A stretch of DNA of 64,000 bases from Bacteroidota bacterium (GTDB lineage Bacteria > Bacteroidota > Ignavibacteria > Ignavibacteriales > SURF-24), in contig JBLMZS010000048.1 of NCBI GenBank assembly GCA_050258935.1, positions 1,278 through 65,277 on the forward strand, given 5' to 3'. The notes beneath the pieces are model-generated. The model was not told the origin of the DNA. It did no database searches and was given only the letters and a program-made list of their open reading frames with translations. This document shows positions 1-29,580 of the stretch, piece after piece. The position numbers and the translations under genes were made by a program. Each line of letters opens with the position of its first letter. Within the stretch, counting starts at the first letter, position 1.

Positions 1-2399
1 AATCTGTAAGGGTACAGGACGTAGTTATATCTGCCGAGAGGCCTATTGTACAGAGAGACCTGACATCAACAGAAGCAAAAGTCTCCGGTGATCAGATATC
101 CATGCTTCCGCTTGAGGATGTACAGTCGGTGATTAATCTGCAGGCAGGAGTAGTAGACGGCCACGTTAGGGGCGGACGCAGCAGCGAGGTAAAGTACCTG
201 ATAGATGGTGTATCGGTAAATGATGCATTTTCGGGCAGTTCATCACTCATGGCTGAAGTCAACAGTATTCAGGAGATACAGGTTATAACCGGCACCTTCA
301 ACGCTGAATATGGTGAAGCTCTTTCCGGAGTTGTAAATCAGGTTACTAAAGTTGCCGGCGATAATTATTCAGGCGATGTGTCTTTCTACACGGGAGATTA
401 TATAACCTCCAGGAAATCTCTTTATCAGAACATTGACCACATTTCGCCGGGTGATGTTTATAATTTCCAGGGAAGCCTGAGCGGACCGGTACCCGGAGCA
501 GGGCAGATACTAAAGTTCTTTATAGCCGGCAAATATCTTTATGATGACGGTTACCTGTACGGAAAGCGAATGTTCAACCCGTATGATTCATCCAATTTTT
601 CTGATAATAAACCGGAGAACTGGTATGTCGGTGCTACCGGCGATAATAAATATGTTCCGATGAATTACTCAAAGCGGTTTTCTATGCAGGGTAAGATCAG
701 TATAAACATAGGAAATGCAAAGGGAATCATACTGCATGGCCTGTATCAGAACAGGGAGTACAAAGACTATACGCATGCCTACAGGCTGAATCCAGACGGC
801 GATTATACGAAGTTCCAGAAAAGTTTTATGGGTAGTGTAAGTTATAATCACGTTTTCGGATCATCGACTTTCGTTGACATACTGGCATCCTACCTCGGTA
901 CTGATTTTCAGCAGTATGTTTACGAGGATCCGTATGCGTATGATCTTATCACCAATGCTGACGGCACTTCCTACAGAAGGTATAAATATGTAAACCCTGA
1001 ACGCAAGCGGGATGTAAGCGGTAATGCATTTCTGACCGGCGGAACTGAGAACTGGCAGGTCTCGCATATGACCGAAACTATAAGCGCAAAAGTGGATATC
1101 ACTTCACAGATAGATAAGATCAACGAAGCCAAACTCGGAGTTGAAGTAAACAGGCACGAACTTCACTATAAGGATTTCCAGATCCATGTTGATGCGTCGA
1201 GCGGCTTCAGGCCCGCAATCTCCGACCCGGGAAGCTTTGACTATAATGTGTACAAAAACAATCCATATCAGATTTCGGCCTATATACAGGATAAGATCGA
1301 GCTGGAATATCTTATTGTTAATGCCGGTGTCAGGTTTGACTATTTTGAGCCGGACGGACTGGTGCTTCGCAACCCGGACAATATATCTGTACTGGACTCG
1401 CTTAGGCCTCCGTATCCGGGGCAGTATTTCTACAAAGCAAAAGCTAAATACCAGCTGAGTCCGAGGCTTGGTATATCATACCCGATGAGCGATAAGGGTG
1501 CAGTACATATCTCATACGGACATTTCTTTCAGGTGCCTCCGTTTGAATTCCTGTACAGAAATCCGAATTTCAGGATAGCTCTGAGCGGAACATTTCCCGA
1601 TTTCGTAGGAAATGTTATAGGCAATGCCGATCTCGAGCCTCAGCGTACTACTATATATGAAGCCGGACTTCAGCAGCAGATAGGAGAAGAACTGGGTATA
1701 AGCCTGACCGCATACTACAAGGATATCAGAAATCTTCTGGGCACGGAGATACATATTAAAAATGATGTGCGGAAGTTTGCTAAGTTCATTAACCGCGATT
1801 ACGGTGCGGTAAGCGGATTCATAGTCGCTATAGATAAACGGTTTAGCGATTTCTTCGGATTCAACATTGACTATACATATCAGATTGCCAAAGGAAATGC
1901 TTCCGATCCTAACGATTCATTCAATAAGGCTCAGGCAAATCCTCCCATCGAAGCCAACAAGCAGCTGGTATACCTGAACTGGGACCGCAGGCATTCTCTC
2001 AATTTTACACTGACGGCAGGTGAGCCCGATAACCTGATTGCGAGTTTCATAGGACGACTGGGCAGCGGCCTTCCATATACTCCTTCGCTGCAGAACCAGC
2101 GCACCGGGCTGGAAAACAGTGACAACAGGCCGTCTATATTTAATATAGATCTGTACGTGACAAAATACATAAGGGTCATGGGCACCAATATTTCCGCATT
2201 TCTGAAAGTATACAATCTCTTTGATACAAATAATGAACTGGAAATATTTACAGATACCGGCAGGGCAGGTTATACTCTCGATGAAACCAGAGCTCAGGCT
2301 GCACCGCGCGGTGTAAACACTTTACAGGAATATTTCTCGCGTCCTGAGTTTTATTCAGCCCCGCGCCAGATGATTATTGGTGCATCTGTGACTTTTTAA
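1..2399 (+). CDS. TonB-dependent receptor (5'-truncated by window edge)
   Basis: Frame is open upstream of the ORF-track start at 102 (SVRVQDVVISAERPIVQRD, TonB-box-like). Plug motifs HVRGGRSSEVKYLIDG and FNAEYGEALSGVVN; barrel motifs NAGVRFDYF, SPRLGISYP and GNADLEPQRT; C-terminal Phe. Confidence 0.9.
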   Translation, partial: SVRVQDVVISAERPIVQRDLTSTEAKVSGDQISMLPLEDVQSVINLQAGVVDGHVRGGRSSEVKYLIDGVSVNDAFSGSSSLMAEVNSIQEIQVITGTFNAEYGEALSGVVNQVTKVAGDNYSGDVSFYTGDYITSRKSLYQNIDHISPGDVYNFQGSLSGPVPGAGQILKFFIAGKYLYDDGYLYGKRMFNPYDSSNFSDNKPENWYVGATGDNKYVPMNYSKRFSMQGKISINIGNAKGIILHGLYQNREYKDYTHAYRLNPDGDYTKFQKSFMGSVSYNHVFGSSTFVDILASYLGTDFQQYVYEDPYAYDLITNADGTSYRRYKYVNPERKRDVSGNAFLTGGTENWQVSHMTETISAKVDITSQIDKINEAKLGVEVNRHELHYKDFQIHVDASSGFRPAISDPGSFDYNVYKNNPYQISAYIQDKIELEYLIVNAGVRFDYFEPDGLVLRNPDNISVLDSLRPPYPGQYFYKAKAKYQLSPRLGISYPMSDKGAVHISYGHFFQVPPFEFLYRNPNFRIALSGTFPDFVGNVIGNADLEPQRTTIYEAGLQQQIGEELGISLTAYYKDIRNLLGTEIHIKNDVRKFAKFINRDYGAVSGFIVAIDKRFSDFFGFNIDYTYQIAKGNASDPNDSFNKAQANPPIEANKQLVYLNWDRRHSLNFTLTAGEPDNLIASFIGRLGSGLPYTPSLQNQRTGLENSDNRPSIFNIDLYVTKYIRVMGTNISAFLKVYNLFDTNNELEIFTDTGRAGYTLDETRAQAAPRGVNTLQEYFSRPEFYSAPRQMIIGASVTF

Positions 2400-2479
2400 T
2401 TGGTTTACTGATTGTAATAATCGTCCGGAGAAATTAAACTTGAACTGATACTTTGTTCATGTCTATGGAGGTTGCAGCT

Positions 2480-5400
2480 GTGATTAGAAAAATATTTACA
2501 GTCAATAATATCAGGATAATGGCTTTGTCATTATTGTTGTTCCTGCTGATGGCAGATCTGTCTAATGCCCAACGGCTGGTTGACAAAACCAAGGGAAACC
2601 ATAATTACAGTAAAAAAGGTTTTATGGATGGCAACCTGGTTTCTACGGTATATTATAACTTCGGTGAAATTGCCGACTGGGAAAATGAACCATCGAGAAG
2701 CGGAGTCTGGCCCAAGGGAACGAACCACACGTACGTCGATGGAATTGCAATAATTGTTCAGGCAGAAGCTGCCGATCCGCAGGGCCGGATAATACACCCG
2801 CTCGAAACCAATTACTACGAGTATACCAGGATTGACCCTGCAACAAAGGTCACTTACGGATGGTGGCCATTACCAAATTATTATAACCCATATCAGTCGA
2901 GTCCTGCGCAGAGCAATGATTCACACACCTGGCCGCTGCACTGGCCGGACAGACCGTCAGACTGGGACGGCGTGTGGAACGGATTTTTCGGTAAGGGGGT
3001 ACAGAACGCTGATCTGGAATCATACTTTGTTTTTGATGATCATGAGGACCGGGAATATATACTGAAAAACAATTTCCACCCGGATCAGGACGATCCGGAC
3101 AGGGGCGGGCTGGGTATGCAGGTTCATGCAAGAGGCTTCCAGTGGTCGCAGGTGCTGGCTGAGGATGTGATTTTCTGGTACTACGAGATTACAAACATGG
3201 GGACTTATGATTACAATAAAGCACTGTTTGCACAGTACGTGGACTGGGGCATTGGCGGGCACGATAATTCATCTAATAATGCTGGTGACTATGACGAACA
3301 GCTGGATATTTCCTATGCCTACTCGACAGTATCATTCGGGAGTCCTGGCAACTGGAGTCCTGTAGGAATTTCCGGATACGCATTCCTCGAAAGTCCCGGC
3401 ATCGCCGATGACAACCGGGATAATGATGACGACGGTCTCCGCGATGAAAAACGCGACAACGTGGCAAGTGTATTTGTCCAGCAGACAGGTCAGGACAGGT
3501 ACCTAACTGATCCGGCTCAGGATACTCTGAAGTTCAAAAGATTCTACGGGTATTCATGGCGGCCGCACTGGGATGCTGACGAGAATGCAAACTGGAGAAG
3601 CTTTACGGATCTGAACAAGGACGGAGTTTATTCGAAAGGCGAACCGCTGAATGATGACGTTGGAAGCGATGGTATCGGACCGTACGACGAAGGTTATGGG
3701 TCGGAAGATGCAGACGGTACAGAAGGAAACGGCAGACCCGATCAGGGTGAGCCGAATTTCGGAATGCTGGATAAGGACGAATCCGACCAGCTCGGACTTA
3801 CCGGCTTCCTTATCTTCCCGACTCATACTCCGTATGATCTGGATAATGATGAGGAAAACTGGAAAGGACTGTCTTCACTTCCGGCACCTCACGGACAGTC
3901 TCTCGTAGGAGTAAATCTTGCCAACTTCTTCTCGTCATATTTCATACATCTTTTCGGCAGAAATACATATTCTGCCAGAACCGGTACGCTTCAGGAAACC
4001 GGTGAAACTGAGAGATTCTCGATGTCAATGCTGTTCGCTCTCGATAAGATGGACCTTTTCAGAAGAAAGAAGACAGTACAGCAGATATATAATGCCAATT
4101 ACCGGTTTGCCAAACCTCCGGAGAAACCGATAGTACGTGCAATTCCCGGCGACGGCAGGGTTACACTTTACTGGGACAACAGGGCAGAGCTTACATTTGA
4201 TGCATTTTATCAGAGATACAACTTTGAAGGATACCGGATATACAGAAGTACTGAAGCCAATTTCCTCGAGAACAAAATTATTACAGATGCATACGGAAAA
4301 ACCGTTTACAGAAAACCACTTGCACAGTTTGATGTTATTGACGGTATAAAGGGCCTGCATCCTGTCACGGTTGCCGGTGCAACATTTAATCTTGGCGATG
4401 ACACCGGACTTCAGCATTCATTTATTGATTCCACAGTTCAGAACGGCCAGACATACTATTATGCTGTAGTTGCCTATGATAAAGGATTTTCGGATACTTC
4501 AATAACCGGTGAATTTATAGGCATACCTCCGACTGAAACTACAAGCATAATCAAGCTGGATATAAACGGCAGCTATAAAACAGATATTAACACTGCAGTG
4601 GTTACACCGCGCGCTCCTGCCAGCGGATATGTAAAGGCGCAGCTTGAAGGATATGTTCAGACCGGTCCGGCTACCGGCAGTGTAAAAGTCGATATCATTG
4701 ATCCGGATTCTCTTAAACGTAATCACCAGTACCGGATTGATTTCTTCAACAATTCCAGATTCAATAATCTTCATCATCCTTCATACCGCATGATAGATAT
4801 TACAGAAAATGATACCATTGTGGCTCTGACCAGGATGAAGGGTGAGCAGGAGCAGACACTCGTGATCGATGGAATGTCTGTCACAATAAATAATGATACA
4901 CTGGTTGCCATAAACAGCGACAGTACCGGTTGGGTAAAAGGTAATAGCAACTATGTAACTAAAACCGGATTTGATACGCGATACGTAGCTACATATCAGG
5001 CAAAGCGTATCGACTATCCTGCTGATTTTGAAATCAGCTTCCTGGAGAAAGGTCAGGGAGATCTTTCATTTCCAGCATCAACTTTCCTGAAGCCTCAGCC
5101 ATCGGATATAAAAATCAAAAACCTGACAGAGGGTATTGACCACTTCCAGTTCATTTTCCGGGACAACAACAGGGATTCTCTTTTCAATGCAGGAGATGCA
5201 ATATTTGTCGTCTTCGGTGATTCTGCCGGCAAAGCAGCGAAGACTTTCCTCGATGTCCGCATAGGCTGGTCGCTGTCTCTTGAAACTGATACAACCATCG
5301 CTCCCGGATTAAGACACGCTCCGCAGCCGGGTGATGTATTCAGGATATCCACACTGAAACCCTTCAGAACCGGTGACTATGTGGAATTCACTTCCAAACC

Positions 5401-5746
5401 AGCCGGCTTTGATCAAGCCAGGGCTAAGACCGAACTCTCAAACGTAGCAGTAGTTCCCAATCCCTATGTGGGTGCAGCTTCCTGGGAGCCTGCAACATCA
5501 AGCGTTGGACGCGGCGAAAGAAGGATTTCATTTATACACCTTCCGGCAGAATGTACTATCAGAATTTATACAATGGCCGGACGGCTTGTAAAACAAATTG
5601 AACACAACAGCACACTTGATGACGGTCAGGAGTCATGGAATCTGGTGTCTGAAGATGGGATGGACATCGCATATGGTGTGTATATTTATCACGTGGATGC
5701 TCCAGGGATAGGCGAGAGAATTGACAGGTTTGCAATTATAAAATAA
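2480..5746 (+). CDS. Large exported acidic protein with FN3-like domain and variant T9SS-like C-terminal sorting domain
   Basis: Signal peptide; Asp-rich DxDxDG-like motifs; FN3-like GDGRVTLYW...FEGYRIYRS...YYYAVVAYD; C-terminus VVPNPY...IRIYT..G..VK...W...GVYIYHV...FAIIK. GTG at 2480 follows GGAGG (ORF-track start 2453). Confidence 0.7.
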   Translation: MIRKIFTVNNIRIMALSLLLFLLMADLSNAQRLVDKTKGNHNYSKKGFMDGNLVSTVYYNFGEIADWENEPSRSGVWPKGTNHTYVDGIAIIVQAEAADPQGRIIHPLETNYYEYTRIDPATKVTYGWWPLPNYYNPYQSSPAQSNDSHTWPLHWPDRPSDWDGVWNGFFGKGVQNADLESYFVFDDHEDREYILKNNFHPDQDDPDRGGLGMQVHARGFQWSQVLAEDVIFWYYEITNMGTYDYNKALFAQYVDWGIGGHDNSSNNAGDYDEQLDISYAYSTVSFGSPGNWSPVGISGYAFLESPGIADDNRDNDDDGLRDEKRDNVASVFVQQTGQDRYLTDPAQDTLKFKRFYGYSWRPHWDADENANWRSFTDLNKDGVYSKGEPLNDDVGSDGIGPYDEGYGSEDADGTEGNGRPDQGEPNFGMLDKDESDQLGLTGFLIFPTHTPYDLDNDEENWKGLSSLPAPHGQSLVGVNLANFFSSYFIHLFGRNTYSARTGTLQETGETERFSMSMLFALDKMDLFRRKKTVQQIYNANYRFAKPPEKPIVRAIPGDGRVTLYWDNRAELTFDAFYQRYNFEGYRIYRSTEANFLENKIITDAYGKTVYRKPLAQFDVIDGIKGLHPVTVAGATFNLGDDTGLQHSFIDSTVQNGQTYYYAVVAYDKGFSDTSITGEFIGIPPTETTSIIKLDINGSYKTDINTAVVTPRAPASGYVKAQLEGYVQTGPATGSVKVDIIDPDSLKRNHQYRIDFFNNSRFNNLHHPSYRMIDITENDTIVALTRMKGEQEQTLVIDGMSVTINNDTLVAINSDSTGWVKGNSNYVTKTGFDTRYVATYQAKRIDYPADFEISFLEKGQGDLSFPASTFLKPQPSDIKIKNLTEGIDHFQFIFRDNNRDSLFNAGDAIFVVFGDSAGKAAKTFLDVRIGWSLSLETDTTIAPGLRHAPQPGDVFRISTLKPFRTGDYVEFTSKPAGFDQARAKTELSNVAVVPNPYVGAASWEPATSSVGRGERRISFIHLPAECTIRIYTMAGRLVKQIEHNSTLDDGQESWNLVSEDGMDIAYGVYIYHVDAPGIGERIDRFAIIK

Positions 5747-5826
5747 CTGATGACATCAGGGCATAATGGCGTTGCACCGGTAAAACGGTTGTAATGCTTA
5801 GCCTGTTGAAAGTTTCGAGGATTTAT

Positions 5827-6855
5827 ATGAAAACAGTAATATATATATATATTGCATTTTTACTGTGTTGTTGTCAGGCACAGGCGCAGAACAGAAATGT
5901 CTCCAAAAGCGGAACGACTGCCGCGGTATTTCTCGAGATACCTGTCGGGGCAAGAGCTATCGGTATGGGCGGGGCCTATGTCAGCATAGCCGATGATGCA
6001 ACTGCGACATACTGGAATGCAGCCGGGATCGCCAGAGCAGAGGCGAATATGGTCTCTGTGGTTCATACCGAATGGCTGGCTGATACAAAATTTGACCATG
6101 CCTCTGTCGTCTTCGGTCTTGGAAGTATTGGAGTGCTGGGCTTTAGTTATACTTCTCTTTCCATGCCTGATATGATAGTCAGGACAGTAGAAAAACCGGA
6201 AGGCACGGGAGAGAGATTCTCGGCCGGGGATATTAGCGTAGGAGTTTCTTACGCAAGAGATGTTACTGACAGATTCTCAATTGGTTTTACTGCCAAATAT
6301 ATACAACAGACAATATGGCACGAGACCGCATCCGGTTTTGCAATAGATGCAGGGACAATTTTCAGGACGGACCTTCTGAACGGTCTGGTAATTGGTGCAT
6401 CGATTTCCAACTTCGGTACCTCAATGCAGCTTGACGGCAGGGATACCAGAAGCTTCGGCAGAATAGATGACACAAAGCAGGGGTCAAATGAAAGGATTCC
6501 GTTCAATATTGAACTTGAAAGCTGGGACCTGCCGCTGCTGTTTCAGATCGGATTGTCAACAAGCCTTATAAAGGATAAGAACTATAATATACTTGTTGCC
6601 GTCGATGCACTCCACCCGAATGACAATTATGAGAGCGTGAATTTGGGGACTGAAATATCATTTATGCAGGTGTTCTTCCTGCGTGCCGGATTCAATTCAT
6701 TACTCCTGAAAGACAGAGAGGGGGGCCTTACACTCGGTGTCGGTTTGGAAACGGGCAGACTGTTTAACAATACTTCTGTTGGATTTGACTATGCATACAG
6801 GGATTTCGGGCGGCTTAAAAATATTCACGTGTTTGATGTGAACATGAAATTTTAA
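5827..6855 (+). CDS. PorV/PorQ-family outer-membrane barrel (T9SS shuttle-like)
   Basis: Signal peptide, FLEIPVGARAIGMGGAY...YWNAAG motif, DAG, FLRAGF, DYAY, C-terminal Phe. Start moved to ATG 5827. Confidence 0.85.
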   Translation: MKTVIYIYIAFLLCCCQAQAQNRNVSKSGTTAAVFLEIPVGARAIGMGGAYVSIADDATATYWNAAGIARAEANMVSVVHTEWLADTKFDHASVVFGLGSIGVLGFSYTSLSMPDMIVRTVEKPEGTGERFSAGDISVGVSYARDVTDRFSIGFTAKYIQQTIWHETASGFAIDAGTIFRTDLLNGLVIGASISNFGTSMQLDGRDTRSFGRIDDTKQGSNERIPFNIELESWDLPLLFQIGLSTSLIKDKNYNILVAVDALHPNDNYESVNLGTEISFMQVFFLRAGFNSLLLKDREGGLTLGVGLETGRLFNNTSVGFDYAYRDFGRLKNIHVFDVNMKF

Positions 6856-6863
6856 TTTTAGGA

Positions 6864-6896
6864 GCATCATCATACACCTTCAGTGAATGATGATGC
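6864..6896 (+). terminator. Stem-loop directly after the PorV-family gene (terminator or mRNA stabiliser)
   Basis: 10-bp inverted repeat GCATCATCAT/ATGATGATGC; no clear U-tract. Confidence 0.4.
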
Positions 6897-6941
6897 GGAG
6901 GTAGTAATGAATTGTTTCTTTTATGAAATTTAAAGTTTGTC

Positions 6942-7057
6942 CCACGGGTTTCACCCGTGGTAATTCACAGCCAACTCCTCCAGAGTTGACGATGTAGTTT
7001 GATTCGTTGACCGCGGGTTTCACCCGCGGCTATTCACAGCCGACGCCTCCGGCGTCG
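6942..7057. repeat. Two tandem REP-like double-hairpin units
   Basis: CCACGGG-TTTCA-CCCGTGG..ATTCACAGC..CAACTC-CTCCA-GAGTTG and CCGCGGG-TTTCA-CCCGCGG..ATTCACAGC..CGACGCC-TCC-GGCGTCG. Confidence 0.75.
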
Positions 7058-7087
7058 AACACAGATAAGGTTAAACTCTATGATCCA

Positions 7088-7207
7088 TATTGCAGCTTTG
7101 CCCTGACAAGGGCAAATGGATATCAGCGCAGGGCTTCAGCCCTGCGTTAAATGGTCACCACCCAATAACGCACGCTGAAAGTGTGCGGGGATGGGTTTTG
7201 GGTAACA
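7088..7207 (+). repeat. ~120-bp three-hairpin dispersed element, copy 1
   Basis: Aligns by hand to the reverse complement of 63641-63761 with about 16 differences. Confidence 0.85.
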
Positions 7208-7230
7208 TGAACTCAGAACAAAGTATGCTA

Positions 7231-8679
7231 ATGAACAAATTATACATAACGCTGATTATATTTTTGATGCTGCCGGTTACTCTGTACTGTGCCGATACTA
7301 CCGATGTCAGGCGATACCTGGAACACCCCGGCAGTATTACGCCTTCTGCAGTTGTTGCGGAGGTGGGCCCGATCAGTATAACAGCAGAGGAATTTATTAA
7401 TAGCTATGAATTCGGGCCTGCATTCTATAAGCGCGACAAGGATTCGAGGCGGAAGTTCCTGGACTTCCTTGTATACGAAAAACTGCTCGCTCTGGAAGCC
7501 TATGACAGACATCTGGATACTGCAAGAGATGTCAGGGATCTCTTGTATGAAATTGAAGCCGATCTGGCTGGTGAGCAGCTGTATAGGAATGAGATACTCA
7601 ATACAGTGACTGTTGGTCAGGATGAGATTGACAGATCGATTGCAGATGAAATGATTGAACTGAAGTTCAGATGGTTGTATGCGGAGACTGAAGAACAGGT
7701 TAGCAACTACACAGAACAAATAAAAAACATCCGTGCCTTTGATTCGCTGTTTAACGTACAGAACCCCGATTTTACCGGCAGAAATGAAAGAATGCTGAAT
7801 CTCACTCTCCGTGAACTGAAAAAAAATCCCCGTGCAGCAGAGGTCGTCGCATACCTTTCTAAAAATGAAATATCAAAACCGCTCAAAGGCGATGACGGCT
7901 GGTATCTGTTTATTCTTGATGACAGAATGGAAACTGTTTTGTCAACACAGAGCGAAACAAACAACATGAGATACAGTATCTATAAGAGTCTTGTAAAGGC
8001 CAAGTCTGATTCTCTCTCAGACCTGTATGTCAGAAATCTCATGGATATTGAACAGCCTGTAATATCGGGAACAGCATTCAGCGAGATGAATGATGAAATG
8101 TGGAAAAGTTTTCAGGAGACGGACAATTTTACAAAAGTCCTTTCATCTTCAGGTTTATTTGAACAGAATACTAAAATCCTTGTCCGAATGAAATCTTTTG
8201 CATTGACAGTAGGGGACTTCATTCAATGGGCCCGGCTGAGAAGTACATACATACGTCCTGAACTAAAAGGAAAACAGAAATTCTATGTGTCGGTCGAGGC
8301 AATGATATGGAAGGCGGTAAGAGACAGGCTGATCATCAAAAGAGCTGCAGACTTGAAAACATTCGACGACCCCTATGTCAGAAAACAAATCCGTCTGTGG
8401 AGGGATAAAGTAGTATATCAGAAGCTAAAACTGCAGACTGCGGCTGAACTGAAGCAGGACAGCAGTTATGCCTTTGAATATACAAAAACCATATTCAGGA
8501 AAGTGATGAAGCTGAAAAATAGATACAAAGTTACGATAGACGAAAAACTTCTGGACAGTATAAAGGTTAGTGATGAGGACAATCCGCAATCTGTTGAGAT
8601 GTATGCAGTAAAAAAGGGCGGGACGTTCATACATCAGGTGTTTCCGGTAATAGACTATGAATGGCAGTTCTGGAAATGA
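7231..8679 (+). CDS. Exported SurA/PrsA-like (parvulin-like) chaperone
   Basis: Signal peptide after ATG 7231; VVAEVG..ITAEEF; KLLALEA; parvulin-like ISKPLKGDDGWYLF. The ORF-track extension from 7090 runs through a repeat. Confidence 0.7.
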   Translation: MNKLYITLIIFLMLPVTLYCADTTDVRRYLEHPGSITPSAVVAEVGPISITAEEFINSYEFGPAFYKRDKDSRRKFLDFLVYEKLLALEAYDRHLDTARDVRDLLYEIEADLAGEQLYRNEILNTVTVGQDEIDRSIADEMIELKFRWLYAETEEQVSNYTEQIKNIRAFDSLFNVQNPDFTGRNERMLNLTLRELKKNPRAAEVVAYLSKNEISKPLKGDDGWYLFILDDRMETVLSTQSETNNMRYSIYKSLVKAKSDSLSDLYVRNLMDIEQPVISGTAFSEMNDEMWKSFQETDNFTKVLSSSGLFEQNTKILVRMKSFALTVGDFIQWARLRSTYIRPELKGKQKFYVSVEAMIWKAVRDRLIIKRAADLKTFDDPYVRKQIRLWRDKVVYQKLKLQTAAELKQDSSYAFEYTKTIFRKVMKLKNRYKVTIDEKLLDSIKVSDEDNPQSVEMYAVKKGGTFIHQVFPVIDYEWQFWK

Positions 8680-8696
8680 CAGAAGCTAAAACATAT

Positions 8697-9977
8697 ATGA
8701 AGTTTTCAGCACCGGCACTTTTACTTCTGGCACTGCTCAGTTCCGGCTGCAGCAGAAACAGCGGAGCACAGCACGATAAGATTACTTACTGGTCGTCCAA
8801 CAATACCGATGAGATCACTTTCGCTGAGATGATAGTTAACCAGTGGAACAGCGGACAATCAGGACCGGTGGTACACGTGCAGCCCGTACCGGAAGGACAG
8901 TCGAGCGAGGAAGTCATACTTGCAGCAGCAGTTGGAAATACCACCCCTGACATATATTCGAATATGTGGCAGGGAGATGTGGAGTTCTATGCTCGCAGCG
9001 GCAGACTCGTCCCGCTCGATACCATACCAGGATTCCTGCAGTTTATATATGAAAGGTGCGACTCTGCAGTGGTAAAGGAAATTACTTCGGATGACGGCCA
9101 TATTTATCAGGTGCCGTGGAAGATAAATCCAATAATGATAATATATAATGAAAGGATATTCAGTGAGGCCGGTTATAACATTCCGCCGCCGACTTATGAC
9201 GGATTCTTTGAGGCCGCCCGCAGGATGAAGGACCGGAACATCTGGATCGGTTATTCAGAAGTAATAGTCACCTGGTGGCAGAGATTGTTTGATTTCTATC
9301 CGTTTTATCTCGCAGCTTCAAACGGAGGCAAACTGGTCGACGGTAACAGAATAGTATTCAACAATGAATATGCGGTCAGGACATTCGGCTTTCTCAAAAC
9401 GCTATATGATAATGGCTATATGCCGCGCGAAAGAATATCTGCACAGCAGGACCCGTTCCTTTCGGGAGTAATCGCAACCAGATTTACCGGTCCCTGGGAA
9501 ATAGTGCATGCAGAGAAATTCAAGCCGGATGGATTCAAATATTCATATGCACCTCTTCCTGTTCCGGGCAGCAGCGATTCAATCATCAATAAACAGGACA
9601 TATCTTATACGTACGGCGATACGAAAAATATTGTGATATTCAATACATGCAGGAATATAAACGCCGCATGGAACTTCATTAAGCTAATGTTGAACAGCAA
9701 GAATGAACTGCTGCTGCTTAAAACAACTGCACAGCTGCCGAGAAGAAAGGATCTGGAGAGCAATCCGGAGTTCATTGAATTCTTTAGAAATAATCCCAAG
9801 ATGCAGCCGTTTGCCAGACAGGCAAGATTTGTCAGGGGACCGGATAATTGTCCGGTGCTGAAAGAAATATTCGACATAATATCGCAGGAATATGAAGCGT
9901 GTGTAATCTATGGTCGCAAAACTCCAGGTCAGGCGGTGAAGGATGCAGCAGATGCAGCTCAGTTATTGCTGAAATAA
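8697..9977 (+). CDS. Sugar ABC transporter solute-binding lipoprotein
   Basis: Lipobox-like LSSGC; TPDI, LVPLD, DGHIYQVP, YNERIFSEAG and TGPW motifs typical of family-1 SBPs. Confidence 0.9.
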   Translation: MKFSAPALLLLALLSSGCSRNSGAQHDKITYWSSNNTDEITFAEMIVNQWNSGQSGPVVHVQPVPEGQSSEEVILAAAVGNTTPDIYSNMWQGDVEFYARSGRLVPLDTIPGFLQFIYERCDSAVVKEITSDDGHIYQVPWKINPIMIIYNERIFSEAGYNIPPPTYDGFFEAARRMKDRNIWIGYSEVIVTWWQRLFDFYPFYLAASNGGKLVDGNRIVFNNEYAVRTFGFLKTLYDNGYMPRERISAQQDPFLSGVIATRFTGPWEIVHAEKFKPDGFKYSYAPLPVPGSSDSIINKQDISYTYGDTKNIVIFNTCRNINAAWNFIKLMLNSKNELLLLKTTAQLPRRKDLESNPEFIEFFRNNPKMQPFARQARFVRGPDNCPVLKEIFDIISQEYEACVIYGRKTPGQAVKDAADAAQLLLK

Positions 9978-10012
9978 ATCTCTGAATATTTGCTTAACGA
10001 TAAATAATACAA

Positions 10013-10873
10013 ATGCCGAAGAAAACTAAAATAATACCTTACATCATGGTGCTGCCATACATTGTGCACTTCCTTGTCTTTGTATCGTTTCCGGTGATAT
10101 TCTCATTTGTACTGATATTCCATAAATGGAATATCATTTCCCCTATGCAGTTCATAGGTCTTGACAATTTCTATCACCTGTTTCATGACAGACAGTTTTT
10201 CTACGCTGTAGGCAATACGCTCATTTTTCTTCTGATACATATACCTCTGCAGATAGCCGGAGCTTTGTTCTTTGCTGTCATGCTGAACCAGAGACTCAGA
10301 TTCATAGGATTCTTCAGAGCCGCGTATTTCCTTCCCGTAATAGTCTCCGGTGTGGTCGTTACTATTCTGTGGCAGCAGCTTTTCGGATATGAGACCGGAC
10401 TGCTGAACAGAATGCTCTCAGCTGCCGGATTGCCCAGGATCGGATGGCTGGTCAATCCGTCTGTTGCCATGTCGTCAATTGCAATAATGGCCACGTGGAA
10501 AAATGTCGGACTCTATATTGTGCTTTTCCTGGCCGGACTGCAGACAGTTCCTAATCATCTTTATGAAAGTGCAGAACTGGAAGGTGCAAATTCATGGCAG
10601 AAGTTCAGATACATTACTCTGCCGATGATCAATCCGACGGTAATGATGGTGATAATTCTCTCGACCATCGGCGGATTCTCACTGTTTATTGAACCATATG
10701 TCATGACCGGAGGCGGTCCGCTTAACAGCACTCTATCAGCAGTGCTGTATATATATAAGCAGGGATTCTTCTATTATCATATGGGGTATGCTTCGACGCT
10801 TGGATTCTTTTTTGCAGGAATAATCCTCCTGGTCATAGTAATTCAGAAAAAGTATGTGGAGAGAGAAACATAG
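10013..10873 (+). CDS. Carbohydrate ABC transporter permease (MalF-like)
   Basis: FIGLDNF; EAA-loop LYESAELEGANSWQKFRYITLP; MTGGGP; multiple TM segments. Confidence 0.93.
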   Translation: MPKKTKIIPYIMVLPYIVHFLVFVSFPVIFSFVLIFHKWNIISPMQFIGLDNFYHLFHDRQFFYAVGNTLIFLLIHIPLQIAGALFFAVMLNQRLRFIGFFRAAYFLPVIVSGVVVTILWQQLFGYETGLLNRMLSAAGLPRIGWLVNPSVAMSSIAIMATWKNVGLYIVLFLAGLQTVPNHLYESAELEGANSWQKFRYITLPMINPTVMMVIILSTIGGFSLFIEPYVMTGGGPLNSTLSAVLYIYKQGFFYYHMGYASTLGFFFAGIILLVIVIQKKYVERET

Positions 10874-10921
10874 AACAACTTATTTCCGGTGCAGTCTTAT
10901 TGTCGCTAAAAATGTGGATGC

Positions 10922-11752
10922 ATGGTAATGAAAAAACTGAATATGAAAAATGTAATATCGTACCTGGTGCTTACAGCAGGAGCGTTAATGTTTGTATATC
11001 CTTTCATCTGGATGTTCAGCGCTTCAGTCGCGCAGGAGAAGGAGATTACTGATCTTGTACTGCTGCCGGGCAGTTTCTCAATGGATAATTATCTGCAGGT
11101 TGTAAATAAAATTCCTGCATTCAGGGCGCTGCTCAACAGTATTATTGTATCCGCCATTGTCACCGCAGGAGCTGTAATATTTACCTCCATGGTAGGTTAT
11201 GCTCTTGCACACCTTGAATTCAGGGGCAGGCAGTCATTGTTCTATTTAATAATATTTACAATGAGCATTCCTTTTCAGATTACACTCATTCCGCAGTACA
11301 TACTGATGGTAGAGTTCAGGTGGATAGATACTTTCTTTGCTCTTACAGTACCGTATTTCCTGAACGGACTCGGAATAATAATGTTCCGCCAGTATTTCAG
11401 GAGCATACCAAAAGATATGATAGATGCGGCAAGGATAGACGGCTGCGGTGAATTCAGAATACTCTTCAGCATAGTATTGCCCAACTCTGTCCCGGCAATA
11501 ATTACCATCGGCATAATTACTTTTATGGGCAGCTGGAACGAGGTACTTTGGCCGATTATAGTAATACGCGATCAGAATCTGATGACAATGCCTCAGCTGA
11601 TCGCACTGTTTGCAGTCGGCGGAAGAGCCGAATCTCAGCTCGGTGTCAAACTTGCTTCGGCAACAATGCTGGCTTTACCAATAATAGTCGCATATACATT
11701 CTTCCAGAAATATTTCATACAAAGCATGGCTTCAACCGGATTAAAAGAATAA
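10922..11752 (+). CDS. Carbohydrate ABC transporter permease (MalG-like)
   Basis: EAA-loop IPKDMIDAARIDG; WNEVLWP; C-terminal FQKYFIQS..STGLKE. Confidence 0.93.
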   Translation: MVMKKLNMKNVISYLVLTAGALMFVYPFIWMFSASVAQEKEITDLVLLPGSFSMDNYLQVVNKIPAFRALLNSIIVSAIVTAGAVIFTSMVGYALAHLEFRGRQSLFYLIIFTMSIPFQITLIPQYILMVEFRWIDTFFALTVPYFLNGLGIIMFRQYFRSIPKDMIDAARIDGCGEFRILFSIVLPNSVPAIITIGIITFMGSWNEVLWPIIVIRDQNLMTMPQLIALFAVGGRAESQLGVKLASATMLALPIIVAYTFFQKYFIQSMASTGLKE

Positions 11753-11763
11753 GGGGTCGGAAG

Positions 11764-13041
11764 GTGAGAAAAATAAATGTCAGAAAGCAGGATATAAGGA
11801 TCAATGCGGATCCGCAGCGCGTGATTATGAATTTCTTCTTTCCCGGAACACAGGAGCGCGCTGAACGTGTAATTGAACGGGTGCTGTCTCTTCCGGCGAA
11901 AAAAATGGAGAGCTGCCTCGATGCAGTGACTCAGGAATTCTCGTTCAGGCACAGATCGGTCGGGAATATATTCCTTGAGAATTTTGCAAGGATACAGAAA
12001 ATAATGGATAAGAATTCCGAAAACACGGAACTGTTTATCAGGCTCGGAGAAGCAGATCAGATCGCCAGAATGCTGATTGGTGCATATTTCTCTAAAGAGT
12101 ATTCGATCGAAGCCGCTGCTATATTCAATCCTTCCATAGTACTGCTGAATGATGATTCCGGTCCTGTAAAGTTTGTCATGAGTCTGCGCGCTGCGGGTGA
12201 AGGCCATATTTCATCGGTCGAATTCAGATACGGTACAATTAACACTTCAGGACAAATCACTCTTGATGAGATTCCGCGATATGTGAATACAGGGAAAATA
12301 ACTTCTGGAGAAAATGAGAATTCTTATTCGGTTAAGTTCGACGACAAAACCGGCATTACCGAAAGAGTATTGTTTCCTCATTCACCGGATGAATCCAACG
12401 GACTCGAAGATGCCAGATTTGTATTTCACAGCAGCGATAAGAAATATTATGCAACCTATACTGGTTATAACGGAAAGAAAATTCAGACCAAGATGATAGA
12501 GACTGAAGACTTCCGGTCGTTCAGGCTGTTCCCTGTATTTGGTGATGCGGTAAAGGATAAAGGAATGGCTCTTTTCCCTGAGAAGATAAACGACCGGTAT
12601 GTCATGATATCGCGTCAGGATGGTGAAAATCTGTACATTATGGAATCCTCCAGAATAGATCACTGGGAGAAAAAAAAGCTGCTGAAGGTTCCATCTGAAT
12701 ACTGGGAGTTTGTACAGATCGGAAACTGCGGATCACCTGTCAGGACTGAAAAAGGATGGCTGCTGCTGACCCACGGTGTTGGTGCAGTAAGGAAGTATTC
12801 AATATCTGCATTGCTGCTGGATGCTGAAAATCCGGAGAAAATTGCCGGAGTACTGAAAGAACCGTTGATTTCACCCGGCAAAGAAGAACGCGAAGGATAC
12901 GTCCCGAATGTTGTATATACCTGCGGATGCGCAATAGTTAAGAATAAACTCATTATTCCTTATGCCATGTCCGATGCAGCCATAGCAGTTGCCTGTGTCG
13001 ATTTAAAAGAGTTACTGGACAGGTTTGAACCGGCAGTATAA
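11764..13041 (+). CDS. GH130-family mannoside phosphorylase/hydrolase with N-terminal helical extension
   Basis: FNPSIV, GLEDARF, KGMALFPEKI, GYVPNVVYTCG, YAMSD. Probable start is GTG 11764; the ORF-track start 11548 overlaps the permease. Confidence 0.85.
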   Translation: MRKINVRKQDIRINADPQRVIMNFFFPGTQERAERVIERVLSLPAKKMESCLDAVTQEFSFRHRSVGNIFLENFARIQKIMDKNSENTELFIRLGEADQIARMLIGAYFSKEYSIEAAAIFNPSIVLLNDDSGPVKFVMSLRAAGEGHISSVEFRYGTINTSGQITLDEIPRYVNTGKITSGENENSYSVKFDDKTGITERVLFPHSPDESNGLEDARFVFHSSDKKYYATYTGYNGKKIQTKMIETEDFRSFRLFPVFGDAVKDKGMALFPEKINDRYVMISRQDGENLYIMESSRIDHWEKKKLLKVPSEYWEFVQIGNCGSPVRTEKGWLLLTHGVGAVRKYSISALLLDAENPEKIAGVLKEPLISPGKEEREGYVPNVVYTCGCAIVKNKLIIPYAMSDAAIAVACVDLKELLDRFEPAV

Positions 13042-13054
13042 AACAGGAGGTAAA

Positions 13055-13960
13055 ATGGAAAAGCACCAGAACAACCCAATATTGACCAGAGAAGACGTTC
13101 CGTTTCCGGTCAATAGTATTTTCAATGCGGGAGCTGTGAAATTCGGCGATACGTACCTGCTGTTGTGCAGAGTCGAGATGCCTGTAGGCCGGTCAAGTTT
13201 TGTGATTGCAAGGAGCAGTGACGGATGCAGCTTCAGTGTCGACAAAAAACCCTGCCTTACACCACAGGACCATAATGAGTTCTATGAATATGTGGAGTGG
13301 GGAATAGAAGATCCCAGGATAACCCGTATTGGGGGAAAATTCTATATAACATATACAGGATATTCCAAATTTATGCCGCTTGTAATGCTTGCAGAAACAG
13401 AAGACTTTAAGAATTTTAATATCATCGGTCCTGTCAGTGAACCGTCAAATAAAGATGCAGCCCTGTTTCCGGAAAAGATAGACGGATACTTCTGGAAAAT
13501 TGACAGACCGACCGCAGGCAGCAGGAGTGATATATGGATCAACAGAAGTCACGACCTGAAGCACTGGGGTGACTACAGGTTTGTGCAGGGGACGGTACCA
13601 GGCACATGGGAAACGGATAAAGTCGGAATTTCAACTCCTCCTGTCAGAACCGACCACGGATGGCTCTGTCTCTATCATGGCGTACGCAGCTTCGGTATAA
13701 GTACACTATACAAAATCGGGGTTATACTGCTGGATCTGAACGAACCATGGAAAGTCATAGGCAAGAGTCCGGAACCGTTCCTGTATCCCGATTACGACTA
13801 CGAGCGTGTTGGCGATGTGGATAATGTTGTTTTCAGCAACGGCTGGATAATCGAAGATAATGGTGATGTCAGAATATATTATTCAGGAGCGGATACAAAC
13901 ATATGTCTGTGCTTGACAAATTTGGAATTTCTTATTTCATTATGTAAGTTATCCGGGTAG
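13055..13960 (+). CDS. GH130-family mannoside phosphorylase
   Basis: NPIL, FNAGAV, WGIEDPRIT, NKDAALFPEKI, YHGV, GDVDNVVF, YYSGAD; AGGAGG upstream of ATG 13055. Confidence 0.9.
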   Translation: MEKHQNNPILTREDVPFPVNSIFNAGAVKFGDTYLLLCRVEMPVGRSSFVIARSSDGCSFSVDKKPCLTPQDHNEFYEYVEWGIEDPRITRIGGKFYITYTGYSKFMPLVMLAETEDFKNFNIIGPVSEPSNKDAALFPEKIDGYFWKIDRPTAGSRSDIWINRSHDLKHWGDYRFVQGTVPGTWETDKVGISTPPVRTDHGWLCLYHGVRSFGISTLYKIGVILLDLNEPWKVIGKSPEPFLYPDYDYERVGDVDNVVFSNGWIIEDNGDVRIYYSGADTNICLCLTNLEFLISLCKLSG

Positions 13961-14001
13961 GCTCTCTCCTTATTTGTCAAAAAATCTTGTATGAAAAAAC
14001 C

Positions 14002-15273
14002 ATGAAAAAAACTTTACTAATAATACTACTCTTAGCGGCATCTTTATCGGCGCAGAACATTACTCTGATTAATACGAGCCACCTCGACCACCTCTATGAT
14101 GAGGTCAACGTGCAGGGCCGGAAAGTCGGGATAGTCCACATATATTCCGAATATCCTGATTATCAGCTCGTAGGTGACGACGACGAGGGAATTGCATGTG
14201 TGGACGATGCGGCAAGGGCTGCAATTTTTTATCTCAGGTATTATAAAATAAAGGGTGATAAAGAACTGCTGCGCAAGGCCAAACAGCTCATTCAGTTCCT
14301 GCTCGTCATGCAGAGTGACAGCGGGTTTACCAACTTTATAAAAGATGACTTCTCCCGCAATACTTCCGGTAAAACAAGCGTCGCTTCTTCAAACTGGTGG
14401 ACATGGCGTGCAATGTGGGCAATGAGTGAGGCTTACAGCCTGCTTTCTGTTAAAACAGATTCTTCCTATGACCGCAGACTCGCCGACCGCACCAGAAGGT
14501 CCCTTATACGTGCTCTTCCTCTTCTGAAAAAAATGTTTACAAGTTATCCGGCCACATCTGCAAAAGAAAATGTAATTATGCCCCAATGGCTGCCTCATAA
14601 GTGTGCATCAGACCAGGCTGCAGTGCTTATAATGGCGCTGGTACCTTTATTTGAAAAGGCTAAGGACAATACGCTGTATGACTATATAAAAAAGCTGGCT
14701 GAAGGTATAATGCTAATGCAGATGGGTGACAAGGATAATCCGCCGTATTATGCACACCTGAGCTGGGAAAACAGCTGGCATGCCTGGGGTGCAAATCAGG
14801 CTGAAGCTCTTCTGAGGGCGGGCCGTTCACTGAACGATAAAAAAATGATCCAGTCGGCACTGAACGAAATTGACAGTTTCTATGACTATCTGATCGAAAA
14901 TCAATATCTCAGCAGCTTTGTATTCGAGAACAGGAAAATGGAAAAATCCGAGAGGTATCCACAGATCGCCTATGGCTTTTCGCCGCTTATTTCGGCCTGC
15001 ATGCTTGCCTCAGAAATAACCGGAGATCAGAAGTACGCTGAAAAAGGAGCACGTATTGCACTCTGGTTTGCAGGCGATAATCCGGCAAATGCACCAATAT
15101 ATGACCTGTCATCAGGCAGGGTATATGACGGTATAAATGGCCGTACCGATCTGAACCGCAACTCAGGTGCTGAATCTACAATAGAAGCATTGCTTGCCAT
15201 GCTCGAGATCGAAAAAAATCCGGTTGCCAGAGGCATAGTTCTGGAACGATTTAATAATAACCAGGGAAATTGA
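14002..15273 (+). CDS. Exported putative (alpha/alpha)6-barrel glycosidase-like protein of unknown function
   Basis: Signal peptide; EGIACVDDAARA, WWTWRAMWA, WFAGDN, YDGI..NRNSGAESTIEALL. The fold is inferred. Confidence 0.55.
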   Translation: MKKTLLIILLLAASLSAQNITLINTSHLDHLYDEVNVQGRKVGIVHIYSEYPDYQLVGDDDEGIACVDDAARAAIFYLRYYKIKGDKELLRKAKQLIQFLLVMQSDSGFTNFIKDDFSRNTSGKTSVASSNWWTWRAMWAMSEAYSLLSVKTDSSYDRRLADRTRRSLIRALPLLKKMFTSYPATSAKENVIMPQWLPHKCASDQAAVLIMALVPLFEKAKDNTLYDYIKKLAEGIMLMQMGDKDNPPYYAHLSWENSWHAWGANQAEALLRAGRSLNDKKMIQSALNEIDSFYDYLIENQYLSSFVFENRKMEKSERYPQIAYGFSPLISACMLASEITGDQKYAEKGARIALWFAGDNPANAPIYDLSSGRVYDGINGRTDLNRNSGAESTIEALLAMLEIEKNPVARGIVLERFNNNQGN

Positions 15274-17513: not shown

Positions 17514-17548
17514 TTCTGGAATATAGCTAAGAACAGTCGGGGTAATAT

Positions 17549-28335: not shown

Positions 28336-29580
28336 TTATTTGCTGAACATCAGCTGCAGGGTGTCTATATTTGCAGTGGTCGGGTACATGAGTATTGAAA
28401 CGAAGTATGCAAGCACACTGATGATCATGCCAAACATGAATATGTTATAGCAGACGTTCATGTGCTTGTATTTTCTGCCCAGCACTTTCCCGAGGAAATA
28501 GAAGTCCTTGATCATGCTTCCGTACAGGTAGTCCTTATCGTTCATCATTTCATTCATACCCCATACAAAATCGTCCAGTTCCATATTGAAGAAATTGCCG
28601 AAGAATAAAAGGTTTGCCTTTTTGTTCCGAATATCCTCCTTTGTAAATGTACCGGATGTAATTTTCGGGCGCGTGGACATGGTTGCAAATACTATGGACA
28701 AAAGACTTGTAGTCATCAACAGCAGTGTGGGAATGATCAAATGTGGATTGGCATCCAATTTCCTGACGAGCAGTGTTACCACGACAGATATAATGATGGC
28801 ATTTATACTTATCATTATATGGGCTTTGTTATCGGCCATGGAACTCAGTCGTATATGATTTGTGGAAGTAATCCTGAACATGGTTTCAATGCCGCGCTCC
28901 GGTTTTTCCTGCTTTAGTTTTTTCAGCTTGATTTTTTCGCTGGCAAGGGAACTCTTCTTATCAGTCTGTTCAGCATTTATTCTCCTTTTTTTAAGGCGCC
29001 TGTGCAGCCTGAGATAATTGTCTATCCTCTGGTTTTCAAACTCTTTTATGGCATATCTTGTCCTGAAGGAATATGTACTGATGAACTCCAGGTTCTTCTT
29101 CAGCCATTCCTCGTCAGAGAAAAATTTGTTCTGTGTCTGTTCAAATTCAAGTCTTAGAAGGTCACTGCGGCTGGAGAAACTCTTCCTGCCGACATGACTC
29201 AGATCCGCATCGCATACAATCTCTTCGAGCAGGTTCTGCGGTGACTGCGGCATTTTTGTTGCCAGTATACAGTTCCTTATCAGTGCAATTTTTTCAGGCG
29301 GAAAGAATTCTTTTTTCAGAAATGTCTCGGCAATCTGGGCGCTGATCTCCTCATGGTCTTCAATCTGCTGGAAGAAACCGGCATCGTGAAACCACCCTGC
29401 AAGAGTCACTATTTCAATATCACTGTCAGGCAGCTTCAGGCCTTCAGCAATTTCCTCGCAGGTGTCGGCGACATCCATCAGATGAGTATAGTCGTGATAA
29501 AGATAAGTACCCGGAGGTACCACCTTATATAATTCAAATATGTATTCAGAAGCTTTTTTGATCAGATCACGTTTACCCAT
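28336..29580 (-). CDS. HD-domain phosphohydrolase fused to a Pycsar-effector-like (DUF5706) transmembrane domain
   Basis: YH...H...WFHDAG...HEE...CDADL; C-terminal ERGIETMFR..NH..LS.MADNKA, NLLFFGNF, LG.VL..KY with three hydrophobic segments. Confidence 0.85.
   Translation of the reverse strand: MGKRDLIKKASEYIFELYKVVPPGTYLYHDYTHLMDVADTCEEIAEGLKLPDSDIEIVTLAGWFHDAGFFQQIEDHEEISAQIAETFLKKEFFPPEKIALIRNCILATKMPQSPQNLLEEIVCDADLSHVGRKSFSSRSDLLRLEFEQTQNKFFSDEEWLKKNLEFISTYSFRTRYAIKEFENQRIDNYLRLHRRLKKRRINAEQTDKKSSLASEKIKLKKLKQEKPERGIETMFRITSTNHIRLSSMADNKAHIMISINAIIISVVVTLLVRKLDANPHLIIPTLLLMTTSLLSIVFATMSTRPKITSGTFTKEDIRNKKANLLFFGNFFNMELDDFVWGMNEMMNDKDYLYGSMIKDFYFLGKVLGRKYKHMNVCYNIFMFGMIISVLAYFVSILMYPTTANIDTLQLMFSK

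Follow-up and report, generated by a model that had tools for sequence, protein, structure and literature searches.

SusC and SusD are the textbook machinery of glycan uptake in Bacteroidota, and the pair serves as the survey marker for sugar utilization loci. What, then, takes the place of SusD in a sugar locus whose TonB-dependent receptor gene is followed by a gene of another kind? The question is raised by a 64,000-nucleotide stretch of an Ignavibacteria genome (contig JBLMZS010000048.1, here C48, positions 1278 to 65277; hereafter the window), part of an assembly of 3.99 Mb in 88 contigs. As an earlier sequence-only reading had described, window positions 1 to 8679 encode a TonB-dependent receptor, a 1,097-residue secreted protein of a large unannotated family (called BIG here), a PorV/PorQ-family barrel and a SurA/PrsA-like protein, all genes of the module lying on the + strand. 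We find that the first three form a tightly linked unit whose members duplicate and diverge together and which recurs across many lineages. On balance we lean toward regarding this trio as the outer-membrane front end of the sugar locus and as a widespread, unannotated, SusD-independent uptake module, in which BIG would be anchored by its own barrel beside the receptor.

The receptor-BIG-barrel trio and SusD

The receptor occupies window positions 1 to 2399 (+ strand), and its gene starts 315 nt earlier, at C48:962, to encode 904 amino acids. Pfam assigns it an N-terminal CarbopepD_reg_2 domain, a Plug and a TonB barrel of the 22-strand type, while the SusC/RagA subfamily is absent from the nine TonB-receptor models that the 798-residue part in the window matches at E ≤ 0.01 in an NCBIfam scan. 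BIG follows after 53 bases (2453 to 5746, +), as an open reading frame (ORF) whose N terminus has a signal-like hydrophobic stretch without a cysteine lipobox. It matches no NCBIfam family at E ≤ 0.01 and no Pfam family at E ≤ 1, the SusD families included. The barrel, 353 residues long, begins another 47 bases on (5794 to 6855, +). It covers model positions 1 to 326 of 326 in NF033709, the PorV/PorQ family, at 204.7 bits (cut-off, 90) and matches PF19572 at 34.3 bits (cut-off, 27). Under the equivalog cut-offs it reaches 75 of 250 bits for PorV (NF033710) and 94.6 of 220 for PorQ (NF033711), which makes it a paralogue distinct from both PorV and PorQ proper; at E ≤ 0.01 it matches no PorP/SprF model.

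Is a SusD protein encoded in or near this locus? PF07980 and PF14322 each match one gene genome-wide, on contig C78, so the locus is SusD-free, as had been proposed; Pfam scans of the window genes between 1 and 29580 likewise contain no SusD family. The sole SusD gene adjoins a receptor gene, and this only SusC/SusD-like pair of the genome (C78:72591-78654) adjoins in turn a divergently oriented PorV-family barrel, which scores best with the "PorV2" family model (218.9 bits, under a cut-off of 325). The accompanying idea that the four genes head the locus proved wrong. Immediately upstream of the receptor is a gene encoding a canonical sorting-domain protein (C48:3-857, truncated by the contig end); this gene stops 105 nt before the receptor gene and is kept in 14/14 orthologous loci; in two relatives that can be read further 5', a LacI-type regulator and a Zn-dehydrogenase stand ahead of it.

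The arrangement resembles SusC/SusD (RagA/RagB) in that a TonB receptor with a CarboxypepD_reg-like N-terminal domain lies in a sugar locus with a surface-protein gene directly after it, and in that many paralogous copies per genome stand beside varied enzymes. It differs in that the partner is an all-beta secreted protein of about 1,100 residues with no lipobox and a tail resembling those of the T9SS (type IX secretion system), in the third gene for a barrel, in a receptor without a SusC/RagA match and in downstream import through an ATP-binding cassette (ABC) system. The SusD-less TonB-receptor sugar loci of Proteobacteria (CUT loci) are a further parallel, since there, as in the trio, the receptor serves sugars without SusD. 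They differ in that we know of no T9SS cargo or PorV-like partner in them.

A unit conserved within and between genomes

How far does this gene order extend? BLAST of the four proteins against all ORFs of the genome recovers the order receptor, BIG-like protein and barrel at 13 complete places, along with two variant cassettes, one cut by a contig end (C60) and one re-ordered (C59); the gaps between trio genes range from -31 to 84 nt. The middle proteins fall into a long class of 1058 to 1203 residues (nine copies) and a short class of 654 to 721 residues (six copies), and the tail is common to all of them. Beyond the tail, BLAST with the window's BIG detects the stretch resembling a fibronectin type III (FN3) domain in a single short-class protein and also in C60's divergent long-class copy. 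Trees of receptor, tail and barrel were built from 14 cassettes, and their sharing of splits was compared with 20,000 label shuffles. Receptor and barrel trees share 6/11 splits, which none of the 20,000 shuffles reach; receptor and tail trees share 4/11 (3/20,000 shuffles). The co-phylogeny looked for between barrel paralogues and the neighboring tails is also present, with 3/11 splits in common (33/20,000 shuffles). Such congruence means joint duplication and descent, not physical contact.

The surroundings of the other cassettes vary. Sugar-type neighbors comprise two GH3 proteins and a CBM9/SGBP-like sorting-domain protein (C13a), a rhamnosidase-like six-hairpin protein (C56), a glucoamylase-like protein (C64) and a GHL10 protein (C21), and 8 of the 55 cassette-flanking proteins scanned carry Por_Secre_tail.

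Conservation between genomes is also strong. BIG has relatives in 40 of the 41 genomes from the same order, at 2 to 23 matches per genome. Orthologues at 64 to 77% identity are found in 22 genomes, and the 14 loci examined among them all keep the sorting-domain protein, receptor, BIG, barrel, chaperone-like gene, ABC importer and GH130, with identities of 65 to 77% for BIG, 60 to 72% for the receptor and 57 to 65% for the barrel. For greater distances, a pattern scan of species genomes gave 571 confirmed relatives, and neighborhoods were counted in the best 80 loci, using only those with enough flank. These 80 are labeled Ignavibacteria, Calditrichia/Caldithrix, Rhodothermales, Balneola, Marinimicrobia/Neomarinimicrobiota, KSB1, Stahlbacteria and some Bacteroidota bins. 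A receptor lies directly upstream of BIG in 70/72 and a PorV-like gene directly downstream in 68/73, both are present in 64/68, and 78/80 have the cassette-type tail; the exceptions include two loci with an inserted gene (L103 and L111) and two without both partners nearby (L093 and L127). The synteny on which the sequence-only reading staked its case is thus found both near and far, and the unit is conserved across Ignavibacteria and the lineages labeled Calditrichia, Rhodothermales, Marinimicrobia, KSB1 and others. In a further exception, a public Calditrichia bin (L118, 622-9677), two tandem BIG-type genes precede the receptor and barrel genes.

Clustered at 50% identity, the BIG family as a whole has 4,611 representatives at E ≤ 0.001 and 621 at E ≤ 1e-30. 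Among 120 listed homologues, none has a Pfam domain and every source name is "hypothetical protein." In a phylum sample of 401 genomes, BIG is found in 183 and SusD in 220, with a distribution that differs by family. Within the window's class, BIG compared to SusD is present in 22/22 versus 7/22 genomes of family f3, 8/8 versus 0/8 of f4 and 10/10 versus 0/10 of f9. Some families have both (44/61 versus 60/61 in f29 and 5/5 versus 5/5 in f19), and in the searched genomes of two SusD-rich families BIG was not found (0/28 in f22 and 0/7 in f25, against SusD in 28/28 and 7/7).

The cassette-type tail and its predicted barrel partner

The feature common to all the middle proteins is the C-terminal domain, which in BIG spans residues ~995 to 1097 (5435 to 5746, +) and is recognized by profile and structure models as a cassette-type sorting-like domain. 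Its sequence shares with sorting domains the PNP motif, the central strand motifs and a C-terminal end of the hydrophobic-K/R type, and contains an insertion of ~15 residues after PNP (residues 1004 to 1020) that is disordered in the model (predicted local distance difference test [pLDDT] of <50). Pfam and NCBIfam scans match neither Por_Secre_tail (PF18962) nor the corresponding TIGRFAM to BIG, and there is no CHU_C match, as expected of a type B tail, at E ≤ 1. A hidden Markov model (HMM) of the cassette tail, run against all genome ORFs, scores the 15 cassette proteins at 96.6 to 146 bits and the next ORF at 56.7, whereas an HMM of 80 canonical tails matches 147 ORFs at E ≤ 0.001 and 0/15 cassette proteins. 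Training sets score by construction, and the informative parts of this comparison are the score gap and the failed cross-matches. The cassette tail is a separate subclass of T9SS sorting-like domain confined to cassette proteins, and because of this separation each cassette barrel has exactly one neighbor with the special tail. Weak cross-matches of the cassette-tail HMM to canonical-tail proteins (E of 1e-9 to 1e-3) indicate remote kinship of the two classes; the tail region of the PorU model also aligns with the cassette tail (E of 1.9e-4).

The 147 ORFs with a canonical tail would fit an active T9SS. SprA is present above its cut-off, split over two contig ends, and the best PorU match stays below cut-off (280.9 of 420). 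The window's barrel is not the genome's only PorV, a point on which the earlier proposal hinged: the true PorV lies elsewhere, at C59:177-1367 (257.2 bits; cut-off, 250), and the true PorQ at C13:77265-78203 (244.4 bits; cut-off, 220). Altogether 27 matches to the PorV family occur in the genome, 20 of them above cut-off. A tree of all barrels was meant to set the cassette barrels apart from PorV and PorQ as one clade, and this attempt failed, with deep forks left open and long branches that are unreliable; only the 7-member long-class clade is somewhat supported (SH-aLRT of 90).

Other barrels of this family were met outside the receptor cassettes. At C59:177-4397 the true PorV gene is followed by a 1,008-residue protein matching the NCBIfam model "T9SS-dependent M6-like inactivated metalloprotease" at 913 bits. 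A 2,374-residue sorting-domain protein is directly followed by a PorV-family barrel (93 bits) at C59:147260-155385, with no receptor gene between them, and a second such receptor-less group (C59:38401-41980) has two tandem barrels; pairing of cargo and barrel therefore extends beyond the receptor cassettes. In proteins P0273, P0275 and P0276, PorV/PorQ-like barrels are fused to TPR repeats, and one of these is labeled Nitrospirota, outside the FCB group. Two further candidates from a search for longer, fused proteins, P0272, where a BIG homologue runs into a PorV-like barrel, and P0271, where a PorV-like barrel is followed by a canonical-tail protein, were not counted as support, because each is one sequence on one contig for which a lost stop or a gene-calling artifact is equally likely.

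Does the tail bind the barrel? We modeled the complex of barrel residues 32 to 353 with BIG residues 975 to 1097, both given as alignments. The interface score ipSAE was 0.92, 0.93 and 0.92 in three runs, with at least 88% agreement of contacts and a partner pLDDT of at least 77. Among the controls, the best value was 0.46, with the barrel replaced, and replacing the partner gave 0.01 and 0.00. In calibration of the tool the mark is reached by 58/80 solved complexes and 2/110 mismatched pairs, counts that are only approximate here because our own alignments were used. Across orthologues the predicted interface is more conserved than the rest (0.74 versus 0.61 in the barrel and 0.79 versus 0.64 in the tail). 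The model thus supports, but does not show, binding of the tail to the barrel.

Would such binding be lasting or transient? The barrel could be a dedicated shuttle that carries BIG from the translocon, after which a PorU-like sortase would cut the tail and BIG would be lipid-linked or released, acting as a free surface-binding protein or enzyme with no standing complex. PorV treats type A cargo in this manner, according to the accessible passages of PMC5562754 and PMC10994853, the predicted interface uses family-conserved tail motifs, and a PorU-like gene is present. Against this, the true PorV of the genome would already serve the 147 canonical-tail ORFs, the tail subclass is clearly distinct, and one barrel per cargo, congruent trees and strict adjacency exceed the apparent needs of a transient carrier. 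We consider the shuttle unlikely.

Retention has precedents in better-known systems. In the available parts of PMC5562754, PorU and PorZ of Porphyromonas are kept on the surface by PorV and PorQ, respectively. The trio resembles these PorQ-PorZ and PorV-PorU pairs of the attachment complex in joining a PorV/PorQ-family barrel to a T9SS-type protein, here recognized from the genes and the model. It differs in number and setting, since Porphyromonas has one or two pairs per genome that serve secretion, compared to ~14 pairs here, each with a receptor gene and a nutrient locus. For type B cargo, the accessible text of PMC10994853 describes exit from the translocon on other carriers, which also serve as its anchors, and cargo and anchor barrel are encoded adjacently (PMC10994853, citing Gorasia 2022). 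The trio likewise encodes cargo and its own barrel side by side, unlike that system in that the barrel matches PorV/PorQ rather than PorP/SprF-like models and the BIG tail matches neither CHU_C nor type B tails.

The head of BIG, the accessory genes and a possible uptake route

If BIG is displayed at the surface, what would it do there? Its AlphaFold2 (AF2) model from a 62-row alignment is confident (pLDDT of 86.2; predicted template modeling score of 0.77). Structure searches with the model assign residues ~48 to 550 (2594 to 4102, +) to a galactose-mutarotase-like supersandwich head. The best match is a sugar-enzyme chain, 9ju0 (Z of 20.4; root mean square deviation [rmsd] of 3.2; 267 residues aligned), followed by the glucoamylase chain 1lf6 (Z of 19.6), then GH94, GH65 and GH116 chains, with aldose epimerases at Z of ~13. 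Within the head, alignment and model place aspartate-rich loops at residues ~315 to 450 (3395 to 3802, +), mostly without secondary structure, that carry the invariant residues D323, D325, D327, D402, E433, D440, E443 and D445 and may be calcium sites. An FN3-like beta-sandwich follows at residues ~556 to 680 (4118 to 4492, +), recognized by BLAST, alignment, the AF2 model and Foldseek, and further beta-sandwiches lead to the tail. Foldseek against the PDB gives BIG no global match, only strings of FN3/Ig domains at TM of <0.25, and its multi-sandwich matches include PorZ (5m11) and PorU (6za2). The protein atlas returns only unnamed clusters, and its record begins at BIG residue 10. Three RNA contigs of 99.6 to 100% identity from one soil metatranscriptome run lie within BIG (4204 to 4516, 4534 to 4779 and 4915 to 5144). 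The same run gives one more, poor piece; its lack of cover on the other genes proves nothing, and a second RNA run has no matching contigs.

Could BIG itself be an enzyme? As a glycoside hydrolase (GH), phosphorylase-like protein or lyase of an unrecognized family, it would let the cassette couple surface cleavage to import. The supersandwich matches include domains of GH15, GH94, GH65, GH116, GH174 and polysaccharide lyases, the fold is catalytic in aldose epimerases, and W175, E189, D196 and R227 are invariant in the head. In the matched enzymes, however, the supersandwich is mostly a noncatalytic N-terminal domain. Neither Foldseek nor VIA finds a catalytic-domain match, and the invariant residues also occur in paralogues from loci with different enzyme sets. 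An enzymatic BIG therefore seems improbable to us.

The fourth gene is listed as an ORF at 7090 to 8679; since 7090 to 7224, its first 45 codons, fall in a dispersed repeat, the likely start is the ATG at 7225, giving 484 residues (7225 to 8679, +) with an N-terminal hydrophobic helix. The Pfam match to Rotamase_2 stays below cut-off (22 bits versus 27). The AF2 model has a pLDDT of 78.7, and its 22 best structural matches are all PrsA, SurA, PpiD, PEB4-type or parvulin chains (Z of 5.7 to 10.4), led by 6vj6 (Z of 10.4; rmsd of 3.3; 126 aligned). By predicted fold the protein qualifies as a chaperone of the SurA/PrsA/PpiD type, with a parvulin domain within a helical chaperone module and a putative isomerase activity. 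It had been counted as a core member of the arrangement, and this did not hold up. The genome contains just two weak relatives of this gene, of which one is found four genes downstream of the C13 cassette and the other elsewhere. A chaperone-type gene occurs in only 2 of 15 cassette neighborhoods; the window's is kept in the orthologous locus only, at 31 to 39% identity.

This pattern bears on another role for the barrel, that it acts like BamG and, with the SurA-like protein, folds or inserts the receptor or BIG, with no part in sugar capture. BamG is a related FadL/PorV-like barrel that binds and holds a surface lipoprotein through its loops at the BAM complex, as given in the accessible text of PMC12578637. 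The window's barrel matches BamG weakly, and a SurA/PrsA-like gene is next in the locus. That match, at 23.7 bits, is far under the cut-off of 250, the best-scoring model is the PorV/PorQ family, and most cassettes have no chaperone, making a role purely in biogenesis very improbable.

Between the barrel and chaperone-like genes, two dispersed palindromic repeats of ~115 to 130 bp, found by BLAST (6939 to 7057 and 7079 to 7211, without strand), widen the gap, which in relatives is closed or within ~160 nt. The gap has 45 BLAST matches in the genome, of which the first 40 listed lie on ~20 contigs, and public DNA contigs break or pile up there (depth of 219.9 versus ~27).

Downstream, Pfam and NCBIfam scans identify a sugar ABC importer with one solute-binding protein and two permeases (8661 to 11752, +) and a degradative part (11548 to 22641, +) with two GH130 proteins, a 428-residue protein of unknown kind, a 747-residue canonical sorting-domain protein, a GH2 protein and a GDE_C-like protein. 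Judged by these enzymes, the locus is probably one for beta-mannoside or mannan-type sugars. The first GH130 ORF (11548 to 13041) shares ~200 nt with the second permease gene, and Pfam matches it from residue 254 onward; translation probably begins far downstream of the listed TTG. A promoter and terminator scan of window positions 1 to 10000 stayed at chance level (18 versus 19.5 and 8 versus 7.4) and is uninformative on operon structure. Further along, the product of a gene at 28336 to 29580 (-) combines an HD domain with a Pycsar effector domain (PycTM) and is thereby a candidate for an anti-phage effector.

How might the parts work together? In the uptake module that we favor, the BIG tail would be taken up by the barrel of the neighboring gene and kept there, as in PorQ-PorZ and PorV-PorU of Porphyromonas, fixing BIG on the cell surface beside the receptor. 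The supersandwich head and beta-sandwich stalk could then capture oligosaccharides, which the canonical sorting-domain proteins of the locus may release, and hand them to the receptor, and the ABC importer and GH130 phosphorylases would complete the use of the sugar. The SurA/PrsA-like protein would be a locus-specific periplasmic helper outside the core. Tail retention, closeness to the receptor and sugar binding are what we infer by analogy. The idea of a distinct surface glycan-capture machine accordingly keeps its SusD-free conserved trio, its modeled tail-barrel binding and its supersandwich head, and loses the chaperone as a core part and the association with sugar enzymes in some cassettes.

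Several points weigh against this uptake module. The neighbors of some cassettes are not of a sugar type, namely, an M3 peptidase (C42) and TIG or LVIVD proteins (C50 and C22). In both families the positions predicted to make contact are the ones most conserved, identity among paralogues is higher at the interface than elsewhere (0.42 versus 0.34 in the barrel and 0.48 versus 0.33 in the tail), and the cassette-specific insertion lies outside the confident interface. Because the interface is conserved in orthologues and paralogues alike, the predicted contact is a general mode of the family, which argues for generic binding with no sign of paralogue-specific recognition. Of the claim that the cargo is held by its own PorV paralogue, then, binding as such has gained the support of one controlled complex model, and the contact residues are conserved across all paralogues. 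A PorV-cargo-tail complex has already been solved, according to the available text of PMC10994853, and the model may pass through likeness to it. Binding is predicted from modeling, retention and contact with the receptor would follow by analogy, and the deep tree of barrels gives no order. Glycan binding by BIG is suggested by its fold, the invariant head residues are common to paralogues from loci with different enzymes, so that a structural or docking role fits equally, and the RNA evidence consists of three small contigs from one library that may contain DNA.

Has the trio been described before? We found no description of it in the open-access literature as far as its text was accessible, a search that covered papers and not their supplementary gene tables, which might name the genes. 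The accessible text of the Caldithrix genome paper contains nothing on it, and in that of the Melioribacter paper a single SusCDE operon and enzymes with Por tails are reported. In the available parts of the Rhodothermus GH3 paper (PMC6987092), the xylan cluster lists three hypothetical proteins after a TonB receptor, and two of the three have Por domains; this may be the same trio unrecognized.

What would the trio mean for these bacteria? A wider proposal, which we put forward tentatively, is that FCB bacteria outside the classic Bacteroidia replace SusC/SusD by a receptor, a T9SS-secreted capture protein and a private PorQ-like barrel holding the uncleaved tail, so that type IX secretion, not lipoprotein export, would build the capture surface, with one machine per substrate, some perhaps for nonsugar substrates. 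Experiments are possible, because cultured carriers of BIG homologues exist, such as Melioribacteraceae bacterium 4301-Me and Rosettibacter firmus. In Ignavibacteria and allied lineages the trio is as common as SusD is rare, and its middle gene, which belongs with thousands of relatives, is unannotated; surveys of soils, sediments, sludge and hot springs that rely on SusD therefore miss such loci. Should the barrel indeed hold its cargo by the tail, the role of the PorV/PorQ family would be widened from secretion to nutrient uptake, and there would be a testable model for how receptors are equipped in cells without SusD-type partners. The trio may thus stand in for the classic SusC/SusD pair.

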